A DNA stretch of 64,000 bases, taken from the NCBI GenBank assembly GCA_963804995.1, contig CAWDSK010000003.1, positions 448,001 to 512,000 on the forward strand, written 5' to 3'. The translations under genes and the position numbers were made by a program. The stretch is from an uncultured Acidobacteriota bacterium. Its GTDB lineage: Bacteria; Acidobacteriota; Terriglobia; UBA7540. Of this stretch, positions 57,201 to 64,000 are shown piece after piece. The notes under the pieces were generated by a model. It had not been told where the DNA came from. It searched no databases and saw nothing but the letters and a program-made list of their open reading frames with translations. How positions within the stretch are numbered: the first letter of the stretch is position 1; the number at the start of each line of letters is the position of its first letter.

Positions 57201-57632
57201 TCCACGTCGACGGGGACGCCGTTTACCGTTTATGATTCCAGTGACCCGTCTCTTCAGGGACAATCCCCCGAGATCTCGGGGTTTGTCGGTGACCGCCCGA
57301 ACCTGGTGGGAAATCCCAACAACGGCCCCAAAACTGCGAGCCAATGGTTCAACACCCAGGCATTCCAGCAGAACACGCATCTGGGAACCTTCGGCAATGC
57401 CGGCCGAAATATCGTCCAAGCCGCCGGCCTCTCTCAATGGGACTTTGCAGTTTTGAAGAACTTTCATCTGGCGGAGTCGGCCACCCTGCAGTTCCGCGGC
57501 GAGTTTTTTAATCTTCTGAACCGGGTGAACTTTGGCGTGCCGAATGACGACATCAGCTCGCCCACCTTTGGGCAGGTTCAGACGGCTGCTGCACCGCGCC
57601 AGATTCAATTCGCGCTGAAGCTTTTGTTCTAG
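54276..57632 (+). CDS. TonB-dependent receptor, Oar-like, with carboxypeptidase-regulatory-like N-domain
   Basis: GTVLDPSGA, LPLNGRNF, TRSGSN, NQFGGTLGGP, PRQIQFALKLLF C-terminus. Confidence 0.92.
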   Translation: MAKHGTCIWVTAWVILLFAAVLSAQETTASFRGTVLDPSGARVPSAKVTAIQAETGFTRSGVSDASGDYLLVLLPIGHYRLEVTAPGFRNYVQDGISLSVNQVAQVPVHLEVGLPQQTVQVNADAGLVATTNDLGETLHDSEIVDLPLNGRNFSQLGLLLPGTAPLTPGLQLAGGSMRGGQSYAVNGMRPESNEFLVDGAENYNSINAGFVLKPPPDAIAEFRILTNTASAEFGHNAGSSTNIVTRSGSNQIHGDVYDFLRNDAVDARNFFSTSVDPLKQNQFGGTLGGPLRRDKTFLFGFYEGYRNRQGETQLTTVPTAAQRQGNFGAECATYSPQGFCTDPAGTQLVNVFASPPQPLPFNQLPPGAISAISQSLLAFYPLPNESNYGPNAYGATEVLQNTSDQFGLRLDHYLSAHDTISFHYLFNNGSQLDPLSIAGANVPGFPVGENFRAQNAALEETHSFSPSIVNVVRFSFLRNKFLFGEATNHTPISSLGFQYSPTLASQLGPPFVEVGGYASVGNPITGPANDYQNTYSLTDSLAWVHGRHELKLGGEFQRDQLNTLLGIASNGFFVFAPVPIVGDAFVDFLIGQPVVFLQGGGQLPRGMRATNFNLYVQDSYKPTSRLTVNIGLRYELPQPYREIHNQDALFVPQAQSRIIPSAPPGLLYPGDPGVGPGLIPREYRALAPRAGFAWDPTGNGKWAVRAAYGIFYDPYYNGEGGPLQAPESAPPWFKTIQESFPSSFADPLPAGSNPFAPNFAGGAQSLTLLTLDPHLQVPYAQDWNFTVEHSFGQGWLLEVGYVGTKGTKLPRFLESNPPTLCSTLPASQQSSCISGEQQNVNAYRPYSGCNPANPNLCNYGSIGLISGVTNSNYNSLQTSLRKRLGHGMAFLASYTYSKALDDVSSFNLTGSAPTLVAGENDLAQNPWNLEAEYGRSLFDARQRLVFSYQWQLPFWKSSHTWYQSALGNWQLNGIVSTSTGTPFTVYDSSDPSLQGQSPEISGFVGDRPNLVGNPNNGPKTASQWFNTQAFQQNTHLGTFGNAGRNIVQAAGLSQWDFAVLKNFHLAESATLQFRGEFFNLLNRVNFGVPNDDISSPTFGQVQTAAAPRQIQFALKLLF

Positions 57633-57692
57633 AGGGGACGGATTTCGGAAGCAAGTGTAGCGTGGACCTCTGCGGTGGTGGGGCAAGTTGAC

Positions 57693-57765
57693 GTAGCGGC
57701 GGGTTTACCCCGCCACCCTGCCCGCGATCGCGTGGCATGAAATGGCGGGGTAAACCCGCCGCTAC
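57693..57765. repeat. GTAG REP doublet upstream of parDE
   Basis: GTAGCGGCGGGTTTACCCCGCC...GGCGGGGTAAACCCGCCGCTAC. Confidence 0.85.
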
Positions 57766-57889
57766 GAATCGGGCAGGATCAACTCGCCGTTGGGGCAAAC
57801 AGACCTGACAGGCAAACAGACCTGAACTTGCTACACGCGAGGATTTCCCGTATCCTGAGGGCGTAGGGAGTGGAAACGGAGAACCAGCG

Positions 57890-58156
57890 ATGCAGTTAAA
57901 CGTCCCACCGGACCTTGAGACGCTCATCAAAAAGCGCCTTTCCAGCGGCGGCTATACGAGCGCTGAAGACGTAGTCCGCCGCGCCCTGGAGGCGCAGGAC
58001 GCCGAAGAAAGCTGGACCGACGAGGAACGCCGGGCACTCGCCGCTCATATCGAGGAAGGCTATCTCCAGGCCGAGCGTGGCGAGCTTATGGACGGCGCCG
58101 AGGCTCGCCGGGAAATTCAGGCGATGAAAGACAACTGGCGTTTGTCCAAACGATGA
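57890..58156 (+). CDS. ParD-like (RHH) antitoxin
   Basis: SSGGYTSAEDVVRRAL, IEEGYLQAERGE; ATGA overlap with toxin. Confidence 0.85.
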   Translation: MQLNVPPDLETLIKKRLSSGGYTSAEDVVRRALEAQDAEESWTDEERRALAAHIEEGYLQAERGELMDGAEARREIQAMKDNWRLSKR

Positions 58157-58464
58157 GCGTCTATGCTCTCACGCCTCTTGCCAAAACGGATATTTTTGAT
58201 ATCTGGTGTTACCTTGCCGATGCCAGCGAAGACGCCGCCGAGCGCGTAGAGCACGCCATTTACGACGCTTGCGCGTTCCTCGCCGAAGCGCCCCGGCGCG
58301 GCCATTCCCGTCCCGACCTCACATCCCGTCCGCTACGCTTCTGGACGCTGACGCGTTATCCCAATTACACCGTTGTGTACCGGCCAGAGACGGCCCCCCT
58401 TCAGGTCGTCGCCGTTCTCCACGGGAAAAGAAACATACAACGCATCCTGAAACAGCGCCCGTGA
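58153..58464 (+). CDS. ParE/RelE family toxin
   Basis: LTPLAKTDIFDIW, GHSRPDL, VVYRP, VAVLHGKRNI. Confidence 0.9.
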   Translation: MSVYALTPLAKTDIFDIWCYLADASEDAAERVEHAIYDACAFLAEAPRRGHSRPDLTSRPLRFWTLTRYPNYTVVYRPETAPLQVVAVLHGKRNIQRILKQRP

Positions 58465-58479
58465 CGAGGCCAATTTGAT

Positions 58480-58552
58480 GTAGCGGCGAGTTTACCTCGC
58501 CACCCGGCCCACGATCGCGTGGCATAAAATGGCGGGGTAAACCCGCCGCTAC
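58480..58552. repeat. GTAG REP doublet downstream of parDE
   Basis: Direct repeat of 57693-57765 with 5 differences. Confidence 0.85.
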
Positions 58553-59322
58553 GCTTGCTGTCCGTCCCGAACCCCGAAGCCCCCATCCCCTGCCGTGACA
58601 CACTCCACCACTTCGGTTATCGGTCGGTGGGCATACGAACATGAGCTTAAAGTCGGCTCGAAGTTTGAAAATCACAAAATCACTCAATGACTCGATGATC
58701 CGATGACTGAATGGCCCGATCACCCGATTGCCAGACCTCGCCGTGACACACTTCCCCGTATCGGTTATCGGTAGGATCGACGCCAAGGATGAGGCAAATG
58801 AGCGGCCCGTCACAAACGACTTGACCCCTCACCCGCCTGCGGGGCGTGCGCTACTCGTAGGGGCACCTCTCGTGGGTGCCCTGATGTCGGCTACGCCGAC
58901 GGGGAGGGCAGGCACGAGGCCCATAAGCGCTTAGATAAGGACGAATAACTTCCGAGTACACCGTCACTCGCTCGGAATATTTAATGGTCCATGGTCTCGG
59001 TGATAAACACTAAGCGACTTATGGGGAGAAATACGGAGAAACGGCAGCAACCGTTAGCCGATGAACCACTTGAAGCATCATTGGTGGTGGGAACTTGTGC
59101 CAGCCCAGTTCGCGGTGTTCATGCCGCTGCTAACCTGGTATTTCAACTCGCGACGAAATCACATCCTCAGGCACATGTAGCACTGCGGCAGGAAGTTCAT
59201 GCAGCGCAGGAGGTCCCGCAAGCGCGAGTCGGGGCGTAGCAGGTCCGCCGCGAAGCCGTCCAGGCGAAAGCTGATGGATGAACGCCGGCCCGTCACTCGC
59301 AACTTGTCACTCGTCACTGCTC

Positions 59323-62300
59323 TCAGAAGTTCTCCAGCAACCACACATTGGCTTCTCTGGTACTGCCCATCAGAGCCAGATGGCGACCGTCGGGAGAAAA
59401 AGAGGCGCCATAACGCATCTCCGCACCGCCGATGAAACCTTCTTTCTCGAGGACGTAAGGGGTACCTTTCAAATCCACATAACTGATCTCTCCGTGCCAC
59501 CCTGATACAACCAGACCCTTGCCGTCTGGCGCCCAGAACAACTGCCAGAAGGTCTCCCGATATTTGACACTAACCTCCTGGGCCGCCCCGCCAGCCAACG
59601 GCAGGATTTGGATTCGGCGCTCGCGCTCCTCATTCTGGTTAAATGCGAGGCGCATGCCATCGCTGGAAAGGTCCCAGACATGATACGCGTCCGGAGGGTT
59701 GAGATTAACCCTGGCAAGCTCCTGCCTCCTCGGTTCTTGCGACGGCTCGAACGCCGAGAAGATGATTTGTTTTCGGTCCGGACTCTCCTCGCTGAAGACG
59801 CACAAAGTCGCAGGGGCCCGGGCGCAGGCCAGGCCGTCGATACCCCGTCCCTCCAGCACTAGCTGCGGTGGTCCGCCCGAGGCGGGCACTCGCATGATGC
59901 GTACCGGGGTGGGGGGATTGACCTCAGCCGTTGCACTGGACAAGTATAGAATCCAGGAACCATCCGGGCTCACGACAGGGTTGTCCTTGAAGTCAGGACC
60001 TGTCGTTACCAGTTCGGCCGCCTCCTGGTCTAACGCCTGTTTAAAGATGTCCGTAGTGCCGTTCCGATCAGACCAGAATAGGACGGTTTTATTGTCCGGC
60101 ATCCACCCGCCCGGATAAGCATTGTGCTCATCCAGTGTCAGGCGGCGCGGCTCCTTCAAACCGTGGCCACCGGCTTCCAGTTCCCCGACGTAGACACTCG
60201 CCGGCGAGCTGTATTTCGTAACGGCCAACTGCTTTCCATCTTGCGTCCCGTTAACAACGTCTATATTGACCCCGGTCCATTCCGTGAGTTGTCTTGGTTT
60301 GCTCACAGGTTGACCGGTCCTGGTGTCAACCCTGATTTCCCAGAGATTGCTGTCGTCCTGATGCGGCGGCGCTTCTAACATTGTATAGATGAAGCGACCG
60401 CCGGGGTACCACAGAAATTGGATGCCCTGATTACATAACCTCGGGTCGGACACGATGAGAGTCGGCTGACCTCCCTTCAGGTCGCGACTCTCGATAGAAC
60501 ATACGAACGTGTCCGGCGTGCGGTGAAATCTTTCGTAGGCGATCCTCTGCCCGGTTGGCGACCACGCTGCCCAATAGAAGCCGTCATCCTCAGAACCGGA
60601 TAAAAACCTGCGTGGTTCCTCCCCTTGTGGTCCCATCAGCCAGATCTCGCAGTAGATTGCAGAAGGACCTTGACATACACCGGTTCCGAGCGCAATCAGG
60701 GTGCCGTCCGGGGAGACGGCCCAGAGGCCGGCGTCATCTCGAAACTTGCGAGGAGGTCCACCCATGGCTGAAGCAACCCAGCCGCTCCGGGGGACGGTTC
60801 CGTAGCTGGTGGCAAAGAACTTGGTACTATCAGGGAACCACCCAAGCGGGAAAAAGCCAGCGCGGTCAGGGGCCGGCCCTTCGGGTTGAGGAATGGTGCG
60901 CGTCTCCCCAGTTTGAATCAGCTTCAGGTGCATTCCCATTCGGTCGCCATAGGCGAGGTACTTCCCGTCGGGCGAAATAACACCACTTGTTACAGGGTTT
61001 TCGCTGGGATTGAAGGTGAGTCTGCGTTCCTTGAGTTGGGGCGGGGGACGCGTGAGCCAGTAGGCGAGAACCGCGCCGCCGATGACGACAGCACCGGCCA
61101 GGGCGATGGCCAGCCGGCGACGGTTCTGTAGCGGCGGTGTCCCCACCGCCGCGTGGCGATCAGAGATCGCCGCTACAGCCCGCCCCGAGTCCGTATCGCG
61201 TTTCAAGCGCTGGAGGTCGGCGCGCAAATCGGAGGCGTGCTGGTAACGAATGTCTCGATCCTTCTCCAGCGCCTTGTTGATGATCTCTTCAAGTTTGGGG
61301 GGCAGGCTGGGATTCAGGCTGACGGGAGAGACCGGCGCTTGGCTCAGAATGGCATTGAAGACGACCGCCGAGGTGTTGCCCGCGAACGGCTGCCTCCCCG
61401 TCGCCATCTCATAGAGCACCGCGCCGAAGCTGAACAGGTCGGTTCGCGCGTCGACCTCTTCGCCGCGCGCCTGCTCAGGCGACATGTAGGCGGCCGTGCC
61501 TACCGCCCCGCCCAGACTGGTCAGCGACTCCTCCGCCGCGGTGGGTAGCGCCGGCCTGTGGCCGCCACCCGGAGCCGCCGAGGACGGCAGCGCTAGTTTC
61601 GCCAGGCCGAAGTCGAGAACCTTGGCTTGACCTCGCGGGGTGACGAAGATATTCGCCGGCTTGATGTCGCGGTGAATGATGCCCTTGCCATGTGCCGCCT
61701 CGAGCCCTGCCGTAATCTGGATGGCGAGGTCGAGCAACGTGTCCAATTGTAGCGGCGGTCTCTGACCGCCGATTCGTCGATCGGAGATCGACGCTACAGC
61801 GAGCCGCTCCTTCAGCGTTTCCCCCTCCAGCAGTTCCATGGCGATGAACGGCTGGCCCTCGAACTCGTCGATGTCATGAATGGTGCAGATGTTGGGATGG
61901 TTCAGGGCGCTGGCGGCACGGGCTTCACGCTGGAAACGAGCGAGTGCTTGCCGGTCCTTCGCCAATTCCGCGGGCAGAAACTTCAGCGCGACCGTCCGGC
62001 CCAGCCGCGTGTCCTCCGCTCTATAGATCACCCCCATCGCGCCACGCCCCAGCATCCCGGTGACCCGGTAGTGCGAGACTTCCTTGCCCAGCAGGCTATC
62101 AGACCCCGTCAGATCAGGGGGGATCGACTCGGCCACGGGCTCCTCCACCGCAGCCACCGCCGGCTGAGGGGAGCCTGCGGGGTTTACCTCCTCCCATTCC
62201 ACGGGGACCAGCAGACGGTAGCCGCGGCGGGCTACCGTCTCCACGTATTTCGGCTCCTCCGCTGTGTCACCCAGCGCGTCCCGTAACCTCTTGATGGCGG

Positions 62301-62526
62301 CGTTGATGCTGTGGTCGAACTCCACGATGGTGTCATTCGGCCAGAGTTTTTTCTGCAGCTCCTCGCGCGTCACCACCTCGCTAGGACGCTCCACCAGCAT
62401 TTGGAGAATCCGGAAGGGTTGTTCCTGAAGGCGCAGTTTGCGCCCCTCTTTGTGCAGTTCCCCGGCTTTAAGGTCCAACTTGAAGGGCCCCAGACGGACC
62501 ACGTGAGAGCGCCGCGCCGCTTGCAT
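59323..62526 (-). CDS. OmpR/CadC-type winged-helix plus Ser/Thr kinase plus TM plus TolB-like beta-propeller fusion
   Basis: LQEQPF...VVTREEL...ETVARRGYR; GRGAMG, VALK, HRDIKPAN, DFG, YMSPEQ; one TM; SPDG repeats. Confidence 0.9.
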   Translation of the reverse strand: MQAARRSHVVRLGPFKLDLKAGELHKEGRKLRLQEQPFRILQMLVERPSEVVTREELQKKLWPNDTIVEFDHSINAAIKRLRDALGDTAEEPKYVETVARRGYRLLVPVEWEEVNPAGSPQPAVAAVEEPVAESIPPDLTGSDSLLGKEVSHYRVTGMLGRGAMGVIYRAEDTRLGRTVALKFLPAELAKDRQALARFQREARAASALNHPNICTIHDIDEFEGQPFIAMELLEGETLKERLAVASISDRRIGGQRPPLQLDTLLDLAIQITAGLEAAHGKGIIHRDIKPANIFVTPRGQAKVLDFGLAKLALPSSAAPGGGHRPALPTAAEESLTSLGGAVGTAAYMSPEQARGEEVDARTDLFSFGAVLYEMATGRQPFAGNTSAVVFNAILSQAPVSPVSLNPSLPPKLEEIINKALEKDRDIRYQHASDLRADLQRLKRDTDSGRAVAAISDRHAAVGTPPLQNRRRLAIALAGAVVIGGAVLAYWLTRPPPQLKERRLTFNPSENPVTSGVISPDGKYLAYGDRMGMHLKLIQTGETRTIPQPEGPAPDRAGFFPLGWFPDSTKFFATSYGTVPRSGWVASAMGGPPRKFRDDAGLWAVSPDGTLIALGTGVCQGPSAIYCEIWLMGPQGEEPRRFLSGSEDDGFYWAAWSPTGQRIAYERFHRTPDTFVCSIESRDLKGGQPTLIVSDPRLCNQGIQFLWYPGGRFIYTMLEAPPHQDDSNLWEIRVDTRTGQPVSKPRQLTEWTGVNIDVVNGTQDGKQLAVTKYSSPASVYVGELEAGGHGLKEPRRLTLDEHNAYPGGWMPDNKTVLFWSDRNGTTDIFKQALDQEAAELVTTGPDFKDNPVVSPDGSWILYLSSATAEVNPPTPVRIMRVPASGGPPQLVLEGRGIDGLACARAPATLCVFSEESPDRKQIIFSAFEPSQEPRRQELARVNLNPPDAYHVWDLSSDGMRLAFNQNEERERRIQILPLAGGAAQEVSVKYRETFWQLFWAPDGKGLVVSGWHGEISYVDLKGTPYVLEKEGFIGGAEMRYGASFSPDGRHLALMGSTREANVWLLENF

Positions 62527-62837
62527 GGGAACTCCTATGGCTTGATGGGGCCGACATTACCACTCCGTTATCGGCAATTCAAGGTGCCACCGGCGTAATT
62601 CTGGCGTTCGAGCACCGGAGCGAACCCTCCATACCCCCAGATTCAGGGGCTTGCGGAACCCTTTCACGGATGCCGCATTGGCCCTGCACCGCTTCTAAGA
62701 CATCGGCAAGTACCATTCCTACCAATCCGTTAGCTCGTCGCCCACATGTAATCCACGCGTAAGCGCTGTTGCATTGAGGTACCCGCTCGCCCAGCCCAAA
62801 GTCGCCCTCACCACGCAAGTTCGTGGAGGAGGGCGCC

Positions 62838-63578
62838 ATGGGATCGAAAGGCAAGACTCAGAAGGTAGCGCGATGGAAATCGTGGATTCTGGTGGGATGG
62901 ATGGCGGTTCTGGGAGTTCCGGGGCTGCTGGCTCGAACTGTAGCCCAGGCCCCGGACGGCGGCCCGGAATCTCAGGGCCAGCCCGCGGGCAATGGCGAAT
63001 CCGGCCTGCGGATTACCCTGCGCATCTTCAACTACGCTCACGTCACGCCCCCCGAACTGACCCGGGCGGAGCACGTGGCAGCAGCTATCTTCCGCAAGGC
63101 AGGAATCGAAACGATGTGGATGGATTGCCCGGTCTCACCGGAGGAGGTTGACCGCTTCCCCGCCTGCCAGCGGCCCTGGGCGACCTCGGACTTTGCCCTT
63201 CGCTTCGTATCCCAGCCCTTTGGGGAGAGACCCGGCTCCCACCACGACCTGGGGTGGGCTCTCCCTTGCGTGGACAGCCAACAAGGATGCTATACCTATG
63301 TCTTCTACCAACTGGCGAGGCAGTGGGCAGAGCGTTGTGACACTACGACCGATCAGATCCTCGGCCACGCCATAGCGCATGAAGTCGGGCACCTGCTATT
63401 GGGACCGGAGTCGCACTCGCAGACCGGCGTCATGCGCGGAGATTGGTCGATGGATGACTTAGCAGCAATGGCACGGACGTTTCTCTACTTCACCCCAACG
63501 CAATGCGAACGGCTCCAGAGGGACGTGTCAGCGAGGATGCGGGATCATGCGGGCGCGCTGGCAAGCCGAGGACTATGA
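62838..63578 (+). CDS. Exported protein with HExxH zinc-metalloprotease-like motif
   Basis: Signal peptide; GHAIAHEVGHLLLGPESHSQTGVM; GGAGG RBS. Confidence 0.75.
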   Translation: MGSKGKTQKVARWKSWILVGWMAVLGVPGLLARTVAQAPDGGPESQGQPAGNGESGLRITLRIFNYAHVTPPELTRAEHVAAAIFRKAGIETMWMDCPVSPEEVDRFPACQRPWATSDFALRFVSQPFGERPGSHHDLGWALPCVDSQQGCYTYVFYQLARQWAERCDTTTDQILGHAIAHEVGHLLLGPESHSQTGVMRGDWSMDDLAAMARTFLYFTPTQCERLQRDVSARMRDHAGALASRGL

Positions 63579-64000
63579 AGCCCCCCTGAGTACCTTCAAG
63601 TTTACCGCCGAGTAGACTGAGCAGATGCGCGCCAAGGTGAGGGAACGCGGGCGACAGCAGGCGGCAGAGGCCCCCAGTCTAACCGTATATTCACACAGTT
63701 CGCCGGGGTTAGCTCCCTTGTAACGCCATAGTGTAGAGCGAAGTCGCCCAACTCCTGTATCGTCGGCCACTCGGAAGTTATCCTCGACGAATCGAAATCC
63801 TCTATTCGATAACGAACGTCGCCCATGGAACCCCAACAGCCTATCTTAGCGCTTATGGGCACGAGGCCTGCCCCTACGAGACACGTTTTTGCGGCCGCTC
63901 CGCGCCGCCCCGCCGTGACACACTCCAACAGCAGTGACGAGTGGCTAGTGGCGAGAAAAGGCTGGCGGCGCCGCCGGCCAATCCAAAGTCGGAAATCGAA

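Follow-up and report, generated by a model that had tools for sequence, protein, structure and literature searches.

A probable mobile insertion cassette with IS186-like ends carries a kinase and protease gene pair in a REP-like hairpin of an Acidobacteriota genome

Genomic setting and anatomy of the cassette

The sequence analysed here is a window of 64,000 nucleotides (positions 448001-512000 of contig CAWDSK010000003.1, here C3, forward strand) from the genome of an uncultured acidobacterium (Terriglobia, UBA7540; GenBank assembly GCA_963804995.1). It contains an element of 4936 bp at 58922-63857 that an earlier note had described as a transposase-less cassette inserted into a repetitive extragenic palindrome (REP). 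Coordinates without a contig label are those of the window. Genome-wide searches were performed on the entire assembly (7.55 Mb, 9 contigs, 58–59% G+C), in which the contig of the cassette is 1.76 Mb long. The element carries two divergent genes between short terminal inverted repeats, and is flanked by a direct duplication and by the two parts of a hairpin repeat:

58854..58921, unstranded: left part of the host REP-like hairpin doublet, i.e., the first hairpin and the left arm of the second, split by the insertion
58911..58921, unstranded: left copy of the target-site duplication, perfect 11 bp GGCACGAGGCC, centred on the loop of the split hairpin
58922..58939, plus strand: left terminal inverted repeat CATAAGCGCTTAGATAAG, with the 16-bp core CATAAGCGCTTAGATA at 58922-58937
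58945..58957, plus strand: left copy of the inner (subterminal) inverted repeat, the 13-mer ATAACTTCCGAGT
59004..59135, unstranded: conserved block on the downstream side of the kinase gene, about 130 bp long
59323..62526, minus strand: cargo gene 1, 1067 aa, winged-helix/Ser-Thr-kinase/beta-propeller membrane protein
62527..62837, unstranded: divergent intergenic region with the presumed promoters of both cargo genes
62838..63578, plus strand: cargo gene 2, 246 aa, putative secreted metzincin-like zinc protease with an N-terminal signal-like segment
63769..63781, minus strand: right copy of the inner inverted repeat, ATAACTTCCGAGT in opposite orientation
63840..63857, minus strand: right terminal inverted repeat, minus-strand reading CATAAGCGCTAAGATAGG, with the 16-bp core TATCTTAGCGCTTATG at 63842-63857
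63858..63868, unstranded: right copy of the target-site duplication, GGCACGAGGCC
63869..63880, unstranded: right arm of the split host hairpin, with its outer end

Both the 16-bp inverted repeats and the perfect 11-bp direct repeat on which the earlier note had built its proposal were found at these positions. Left and right 16-bp repeats differ at 1 of 16 positions, where the left one has T and every other copy in the genome has A; over 20 bases, the left end of the cassette has 19 in common with the left end of a complete insertion sequence (IS) of 1338 bp located on another contig. When the genome was searched with the end motif at up to two mismatches, 6 forward and 6 reverse matches were obtained, compared to 0 and 0 for a backwards control, and hence the pattern exceeds chance. 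The eight matches at up to one mismatch formed four inward-facing pairs. Apart from the cassette, the elements with these ends comprise the complete IS and two transposable elements of the miniature inverted-repeat type (MITEs):

C1:22327-23664: complete IS, 1338 bp, duplication GGCCGTTGGCC
C2:726794-726885: MITE, 92 bp, duplication GGCCAACGGCC
C5:128438-128530: MITE, 93 bp, duplication GGCCTTCGGCC
window 58922-63857: cassette, 4936 bp, duplication GGCACGAGGCC

Only about 18 terminal bases (CATAAGCGCTAAGATAAG) are common to the four elements, whose interiors are unrelated. In all four, the 11-bp duplication consists of the loop and 3–4 bp of both arms of a short G+C-rich stem.

A transposase remnant was not detected in the cassette: blastn against the complete IS aligned the 16–20 terminal bases only, tblastx against the same IS reached a best E-value of 0.06, and the two small open reading frames (ORFs) of the cassette were without a Pfam match, so that the description as transposase-less was upheld. 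The ORF at 63602-63835 was considered as a possible transposase remnant and rejected, as it has no Pfam match and its frame is not kept in the paralogues; the DNA at this position is conserved and resembles a degenerate second copy of the protease's C-terminal helix. Two IS-type inverted repeats around coding sequences in the absence of a transposase gene correspond to the structural definition of a mobile insertion cassette (MIC), which PMC6199540 gives as two inverted repeats around one or more genes without a transposase. The duplication of the cassette has the same length as those of the IS and of both MITEs, as expected for a MIC. The arrangement of a composite transposon, i.e., two complete IS or MITE copies around the cargo, is not seen; each side has a single end motif.

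The pre-insertion site was rebuilt in a script by removal of the element and one copy of the duplication. The rebuilt site folds as a single long hairpin doublet, and its outer 12-mers (58854-58865 and 63869-63880) are exact reverse complements, which upholds the complementarity claimed earlier for the outer ends at 58854 and 63880. It gave 14 blastn matches in the genome, two of which are the flanks of the locus itself; 5 of the remaining 12 run unbroken over the junction and hence represent other, uninterrupted copies of the hairpin repeat. The hairpin unit (66–68 bp) is also present in two sister species (G013 and G003) at 90–94% identity. Compared with REPs and REP doublets forming hairpins (REPINs), the repeat is a palindromic doublet with 12 other copies in the genome, but its core 9-mer is hardly over-represented. 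Since the family is small (about a dozen detectable copies) and the core 9-mer barely enriched (72 found, about 58 expected), "REP-like" is the safer term: the claimed insertion stands, as the hairpin re-closes when the element is removed, and the designation as REP needs this qualification. REP sequences as IS targets, in the account given by Tobes and Pareja 2006 (PMC1525189), resemble this locus in that a mobile element lies inside extragenic palindromic repeats; the difference is that here IS, MITEs, and cassette, and thus the family as a whole, duplicate 11 bp with the hairpin loop at their centre.

Within about 2.8 kb of non-coding sequence, the cassette has repeats of about 250 bp to its left and right (window 58589-58847 and L009:11536-12457, i.e., C3:512035-512956, just past the window). 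A piece of the left one (58740-58836) recurs with 100% identity about 1 kb past the cassette.

Matching insertion sequence in the genome

The check proposed in the earlier note, a genome search for the same ends and for an IS4-type transposase between them, yielded both the complete IS on C1 and the miniature derivatives. The IS at C1:22327-23664 has perfect ends and a single open transposase frame of 374 aa that fills the element. Its product matches DDE_Tnp_1 (PF01609) at 5.1e-14 and the NCBIfam model NF033592 (transpos_IS4_1) with 140.2 bits at a cut-off of 115, and it carries YRLRWQIELIFKRLK, which fits Y(2)R(3)E(6)K, the motif of the IS4 family (PMC2266710). With a single-ORF DDE transposase, this motif, and a duplication that spans roughly one helical turn (11 bp, where about 10 bp are typical), the partner IS shows the characters of the IS4 family. 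It is the only close copy of this transposase in the genome, the next one being 41% identical and six further ones 32%. What is looked for in the case of a MIC, an IS that has the same ends and an apparently intact transposase, is hence present in this genome.

Relation to IS186, IS231 and known mobile insertion cassettes

IS186 is an autonomous IS that ISfinder presumably places in the IS231 subgroup of the IS4 family, and what is documented on MICs comes mainly from IS231 of the Bacillus cereus group and from a few resistance plasmids. In a plasmid collection, the 374-aa transposase matched best to enterobacterial proteins labelled "IS4-like element IS421 family" (31% identity over 93% of the protein, E = 1e-36). 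The end of IS186 given in the earlier note was verified on a real IS421 copy (L046), whose ends (CATAAGCGCTAACTTAAGG) are identical to those described here at 17 of 19 positions and whose 10-bp duplication lies inside GGGG-N6-CCCC; the target motif reported for IS186 in E. coli in PMC5009759 is GGGG(N6/N7)CCCC. Further likenesses to E. coli IS186/IS421 are the length (1338 bp here, about 1339 bp on L046), the homologous transposases, and the duplications of 10–11 bp in short G+C-rich palindromes (for IS186 as described in PMC5009759). The target sequence differs, being GGC(C)-N3-5-(G)GCC at hairpin apices here and GGGG-N6/7-CCCC for IS186.

The ends starting with CAT and the duplication of about 11 bp had been taken as fitting the IS231 subgroup, for which Table 1 of PMC2266710 lists the end consensus CAT-------AA--TAA and direct repeats of 10–12 bp. 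The IS and MITE ends match this consensus at every fixed position, so that the fit was confirmed, with one position off in each repeat of the cassette. Passenger DNA is presented in PMC2266710 as a hallmark of IS231 that, by its wording of 2008, was "not yet observed" in other IS4 subgroups.

MIC231 of IS231 (Chen et al. 1999; De Palmenaer et al. 2004, both as related in PMC6199540 and PMC2266710) is among the closest known counterparts: it has CAT-starting IS4-family ends, passenger gene(s) and no transposase, a duplication of 10–12 bp, and a cognate IS in the same cell that makes movement in trans possible, and its cassettes of differing cargo have only the ends in common. Trans-mobilisation of MICs driven by IS231 was shown experimentally, as reported in PMC6199540. 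The element described here differs in its host phylum (Acidobacteriota here, Bacillota there), in its transposase clade (IS186/IS421, as judged by similarity to IS421-family transposases alone), in that only about 18 bp are shared and nothing beside the left end corresponds to the "CA region", and in its target, the loop of a REP-like hairpin. The qnrD and qnrS2 MICs on small plasmids, as they are described in PMC3913671 and PMC5444012, are likewise transposase-less, bounded by inverted repeats, and equipped with an accessory gene; they are plasmid-borne, carry resistance genes and belong to other IS families, whereas the present cassette is chromosomal and carries a signalling and protease pair. 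No report of IS186-type MITEs or MICs, nor of such ISs in Acidobacteria, was found in a limited literature search, which is a weak negative; the supplementary tables of PMC2266710 and PMC5009759 may list some.

Cargo genes and their pairing

The only intact genes had been named as a winged-helix, kinase, and propeller gene and a divergent gene with an HExxH motif, which was borne out by the Pfam domains of the former and by a conserved HExxH block in the latter. The protein of gene 1 contains an OmpR/PhoB-type winged helix at residues 28–105 (Trans_reg_C, 2.2e-18), a Ser/Thr kinase domain at 153–429 (Pkinase, 2.7e-42) with HRD and DFG motifs, one predicted, strongly hydrophobic membrane helix at about 472–492, and a PD40/TolB-like beta-propeller (PD40, 7.5e-18). 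A scan of the intergenic region for sigma-70-type promoters gave 0 sites compared to 1.1 expected and is uninformative for Acidobacteriota.

Two in-frame copies of the GTAGCGGCGG-type REP doublet, which is abundant in the genome, lie inside the kinase ORF (61125-61178 and 61747-61799) and encode ...SISDRRIGGQRPPLQ... and ...ISDRHAAVGTPPLQ..., respectively. Both are common to the paralogue on C3, and the first is diverged in the paralogue on C6 (see below). Elsewhere in the genome, doublets of this type lie between genes too.

The start of gene 2 was set at the ATG in line with where the nearest relatives begin; a GTG at 62823 would give 251 aa. Its product has no match in Pfam or NCBIfam and belongs to a family of 47 detectable homologues, none of them annotated and none with a Pfam domain. 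The motif HEVGHLLLGPESH is followed by GVM, and H186, E187, H190, G202, and M204 are invariant in the family. In an AlphaFold2 model (mean predicted local distance difference test score (pLDDT) 81.8), the best Foldseek matches were archaemetzincin, snapalysin, and matrix metalloproteinases, with E-values from 1.3e-5; against archaemetzincin and snapalysin, the TM-score was 0.33–0.46 when normalised by the query and 0.52–0.61 when normalised by the target. Canonical metzincins have the zinc motif HExxHxxGxxH/D followed by the Met-turn. The motif spacing in HEVGHLLLGPESH is longer than that, and the conserved GxM lies only a few residues downstream.

Of 151 genomes sampled in the class, 29 contain the protease family, frequently with more than one copy. 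Leaving the present locus aside, 16 of 29 loci have a winged-helix and/or kinase gene at a distance of no more than 1.5 kb, in divergent or downstream position. The pairing hence recurs across Terriglobia and is conserved, which supports a functional link between the protease and the winged-helix/kinase gene. The nature of this link is something we infer from domain content and conserved gene neighbourhood, by which the cargo is most likely a self-contained signalling unit: the membrane protein would sense an extracytoplasmic signal by its beta-propeller, the signal would be coupled via the kinase domain to the DNA-binding domain of the same protein, and the secreted metzincin-like protease would be the regulated output or a processing partner. 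A role of the cargo as a defence system was considered and rejected, since PADLOC matched the kinase to generic Ser/Thr-kinase models only and the protease to none.

Paralogous modules

Three further copies of the two-gene module were identified in the genome:

C6:1898779-1903461: 86% DNA identity over 2.6 kb
C3:339735-344705: collinear with the cassette interior, four blocks of 73–82% identity, full-length genes
C5:230234-235143: kinase gene broken

Between the cassette and the C6 copy, the protease genes have a synonymous divergence (dS) of 0.11 and a ratio of nonsynonymous to synonymous divergence (dN/dS) of 0.26. In the part encoding winged helix and kinase these values are 0.52 and 0.27, and the sensor part is unrelated, while the approximately 190 bp of the intergenic region nearest to the protease gene are identical. 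From the dN/dS ratios, the unrelated sensor part, and the identical stretch it follows that the copies are functional mosaics between which sequence is still being exchanged. About 70 bp past the point where the cassette diverges, the C6 and C3 copies both end in a degenerate IS186-like repeat of a third type (CATAGGCGTTAACCTGAG and CATAGGGATTAACCTAAG, at C6:1903444-1903461, i.e., L078:2472-2489, and C3:344688-344705), and their homology to each other extends through this repeat. These repeats resemble the ends of a second IS186-like IS located 5 kb away on C6. As left ends of the C6 and C3 modules, degenerate candidates only were found, without a duplication.

Counterparts of the roughly 130-bp block that follows the kinase gene (59004-59135) lie next to paralogous or related kinase genes, both in this genome and in two sister genomes (G001 and G015), at 78–87% identity. 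No consistent reading frame was kept over five copies, and folding gave z-scores of +0.6 and -0.3 and a weak consensus structure. A search of 57600-64000 against Rfam returned nothing near the gathering score, only hairpin look-alikes of microRNA models.

Distribution of the end family

The end motif was found in 21 of 29 genomes of the genus. In the loci fetched from these, 23 distinct adjacent end pairs were counted; the 11-bp duplication is perfect in 5 of them and has no more than one mismatch in 10. Nearly all duplications are palindromic and G+C-rich (e.g., GGCATCCTGCC and AGGTTTCACCT), and most are of the GGC-N5-GCC type. An element of 262 bp in a sister species (L023) occupies the same type of hairpin as the cassette and is flanked by GGCACGAGGCC and GGCACAAGGCC.

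In a collection of species genomes, the exact 18-bp end was present in at least 133 stretches, mostly from Acidobacteriota and scattered in other phyla. From the 80 loci that were fetched, 31 duplication-flanked pairs were obtained, measuring 102–517 bp (12 pairs), 1324–1386 bp (17 pairs), 1540 bp (one), and 2188 bp (one); the duplication is 10–12 bp long, mostly 11, in 30 of the 31. The largest pair is a cassette in a Bryobacteraceae genome bin (L185:7831-10018) with the same 18-bp ends and a perfect duplication GGTCTGGTACC. It lacks a transposase and carries a divergent Lrp/AsnC regulator and an M19 dipeptidase, which is again a regulator plus a peptidase. Other cargo between the same ends, for which the earlier note had suggested to look, hence does exist, though cassettes of large size are rare. 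Among metagenome proteins, transposases with 70% or more identity to that of C1 are very common. The IS family with these ends is active and widespread.

Further arrangements were noted among the fetched loci. The element L058:337-1982 (G018:C24:986036-987681; 1646 bp) is bounded by perfect ends of this type, shows an 11-bp duplication, and encodes a different IS4-type transposase (DUF4372 and DDE_Tnp_1), which tblastn with the C1 transposase had missed. At some MITEs of sister species (L044, L065, L070), the flanking 11-mers are reverse complements (e.g., GGGCAACGCCC and GGGCGTTGCCC) and not direct repeats; it seems that the hairpin loop was flipped after insertion or that copies recombined. 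At L075:9938-12243 (G038:C9), two MITEs of 90 bp surround 2.1 kb with a transposase of another type, and the outermost flanks are identical (GGCATCCTGCC), which may represent a composite or an IS inserted between MITEs.

Origin of the cassette

The cassette shares its ends with a complete IS, is flanked by a target-site duplication, and lacks a transposase remnant; for these reasons, we consider it probable that 58922-63857 is a non-autonomous MIC of an IS186-like IS (IS4 family, IS231-subgroup-type ends) that was inserted as one unit into a REP-like hairpin. Its mobilisation is inferred to have occurred in trans. The DDE transposase of the copy at C1:22327-23664, or of an earlier copy, would bind both 18-bp ends, the whole 4.9 kb would be excised by the cut-and-paste route known for IS4-family enzymes, and insertion would take place by an 11-bp staggered cut into a G+C-rich palindromic target, in the way that IS186 picks GGGG(N6/N7)CCCC.

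Several points weigh against this interpretation. Each terminal repeat of the cassette departs from the IS231-subgroup consensus at one fixed position (left T at 11, right G at 17), and with 4.9 kb the cassette exceeds the range of about 0.7–3 kb that PMC6199540 quotes for MIC231. It is single-copy: its right-end sequence occurs in full length only here among the 29 genus genomes, and the exact 24-base word composed of the right end and 8 interior bases had 0 matches in metagenome contigs. Neither transposition in trans nor copies at more than one site were observed, with none in the 28 other genus genomes, and the earlier wording that the cassette spreads was hence too strong. As to the function proposed for the cargo, a limited literature search on the domain combination gave a general paper on transcription-factor abundance and nothing on this architecture.

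An empty site was not found in relatives when the flanks were compared at DNA level with seven orthologous loci, and a six-frame comparison of 26 kb with the 4.5–15 kb downstream of the upstream gene in four relatives matched the upstream gene alone; the locus lies at a synteny break with respect to the four nearest species, with nothing shared over 14 kb downstream, and therefore no empty site is readable. No public sequencing run contains the stretch, the best share of sampled words being 0.09. In four metagenome runs from soil, peat, and permafrost, short pieces from distant relatives, mostly 90–95% alike, piled up on the kinase domain and its internal repeats; they say nothing on the junctions or the habitat. 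One low-depth contig, which joins 58882 to 63858 with 10 other letters between, was rejected as an empty site, as it looks like another copy of the hairpin. As no spanning reads were found, the case for the junctions is based on the assembly and on how the parts of the anatomy fit together.

The last point to be weighed is the inner inverted repeat. The exact 13-mer ATAACTTCCGAGT occurs twice in the whole genome, both times in the cassette and in inverted orientation, exactly where the similarity to the paralogous modules stops, and the DNA outside of it (23 + 76 bp, i.e., about 100 bp) is close in size to the MITEs of this genome (92–93 bp). This leaves room for a different order of events, in which a MITE of about 100 bp was inserted first and the 4.8-kb module within the inner repeats entered later by recombination or a second mobile process, so that the 4.9 kb never moved as a whole. 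Donor DNA would have been at hand in the three paralogous copies of the cargo, and the approximately 190 bp of promoter region identical to the C6 copy speak for ongoing exchange. We nevertheless regard this order as unlikely, because the inner repeats are not surrounded by a target duplication, because a MITE with the outer sequences of the cassette was found neither in the 29 genus genomes nor in 245 loci nor in the metagenome scan, and because near-copies of the inner motif (up to two mismatches) lie 120–220 bp inside 6 further IS186-like ends among the 44 examined, including both ends of an unrelated cassette of 3842 bp (D2, see below). The motif hence appears to belong to such ends and not to delimit an element of its own; it may be a second binding site of these ends or a boundary of the cargo.

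Alternatively, the cassette could be the immobile relic of a formerly autonomous "transporter IS" with passenger genes that lost its transposase gene by deletion after arrival. Elements of the IS231 subgroup do carry passenger DNA between the left end and the transposase gene according to PMC2266710, and the single copy of the cassette would fit. No trace of a transposase was obtained by blastn or tblastx, though, and with nearly intact ends and a matching transposase in the cell the element would still be mobilisable anyway, which makes this explanation quite improbable.

It is more improbable still that two independent insertions into two hairpin copies took place around a resident gene pair, with later loss of the inner ends and with flanks that match through target preference. 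The family does hit the same loop sequences repeatedly, as in the sister species with the flanks GGCACGAGGCC and GGCACAAGGCC, and pairs of 90-bp MITEs around 2 kb exist in G038 (L064 and L075). Two precise deletions would be needed, however, to remove both inner repeats and the inner hairpin arms; the cassette has a single repeat per end and no visible remnants of inner arms or ends, and its outer flanks join into one complete hairpin doublet like the uninterrupted copies. An assembly artefact by mis-joined repeats can practically be dismissed, as in spite of the repeat-rich surroundings (the repeats of about 250 bp on both sides), paralogues of up to 86% identity, and no reads placed on the junctions, the assembly has 9 contigs only and the one around the cassette measures 1.76 Mb, and repeats, exact duplication, and re-closing hairpin are what a transposition generates and a mis-join does not.

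Cassettes with a second end type and related insertion sequences

Four other transposase-less cassettes in the genome have a second IS186-like end type, CATAGGCGTTAAAATA, for which no matching transposase was found in this genome:

C3:136650-144217 (L108): 7568 bp
C3:837399-841240 (L109, D2): 3842 bp
C6:599931-604020 (L110): 4090 bp
C6:1929309-1932096 (L111): 2788 bp

Three of these have a perfect 11-bp duplication and one a duplication of 9 bp, and only about 160 bp per end are common to them. Their cargo is unrelated and comprises DUF1643, radical SAM, XRE, IrrE-chagasin, and papain genes, genes of membrane and BON-domain proteins, a protein of 1107 aa without domain match, and an AAA_21 ATPase with DUF4276. 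Together with the cassette in the window, they indicate that the formation of MICs is recurrent in this genome.

MICs as a kind of element are known; new are the IS186 clade, the host phylum, the size, the targeting of hairpin loops, and the presence of several sister cassettes in one genome. Within the IS4 family, the MIC strategy would thereby be extended to the branch of IS186, in a soil acidobacterium where an autonomous IS, miniature elements, and cargo cassettes occur in the same genome and the choice of hairpin loops as target is clear. Terriglobia have large genomes rich in paralogues, and such cassettes would offer a concrete route for copying signalling modules of two genes, as well as defence operons, around them. 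The conservation of 17 of 19 terminal bases with E. coli IS186 despite 31% transposase identity points to the bases that the enzyme must read. It is a rather speculative extension that IS186-like ends serve as a general gene-cassette shuttle in Terriglobia, landing on REP-like hairpins and other G+C-rich palindromes; if so, the behaviour would be somewhat like that of an integron without integrase, and the inner 13-bp repeats could be exchange points for cargo swaps between cassette shells.

With a generalised end pattern, 41 ends were counted in the genome, and the autonomous ISs fell into types A (one copy), B (one copy), and C (six copies, 1390 bp). Three different IS186-like ISs are represented by L001 (C1:22327-23664), L112 (C6:1908453-1909782), and L113 (C5:647339-648728), the transposases of the latter two being 41% and 32% identical to that of L001, respectively. 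Their ends are related but distinct (CATAAGCGCTAAGATA for L001, CATAAGCGTTAACCTA for L112, and CATATGCGCTAGAATA paired with CATAGGCGCTAGAATA for L113). The L113-type IS is present in six copies of 1390 bp, whose duplications are all rich in G or C.

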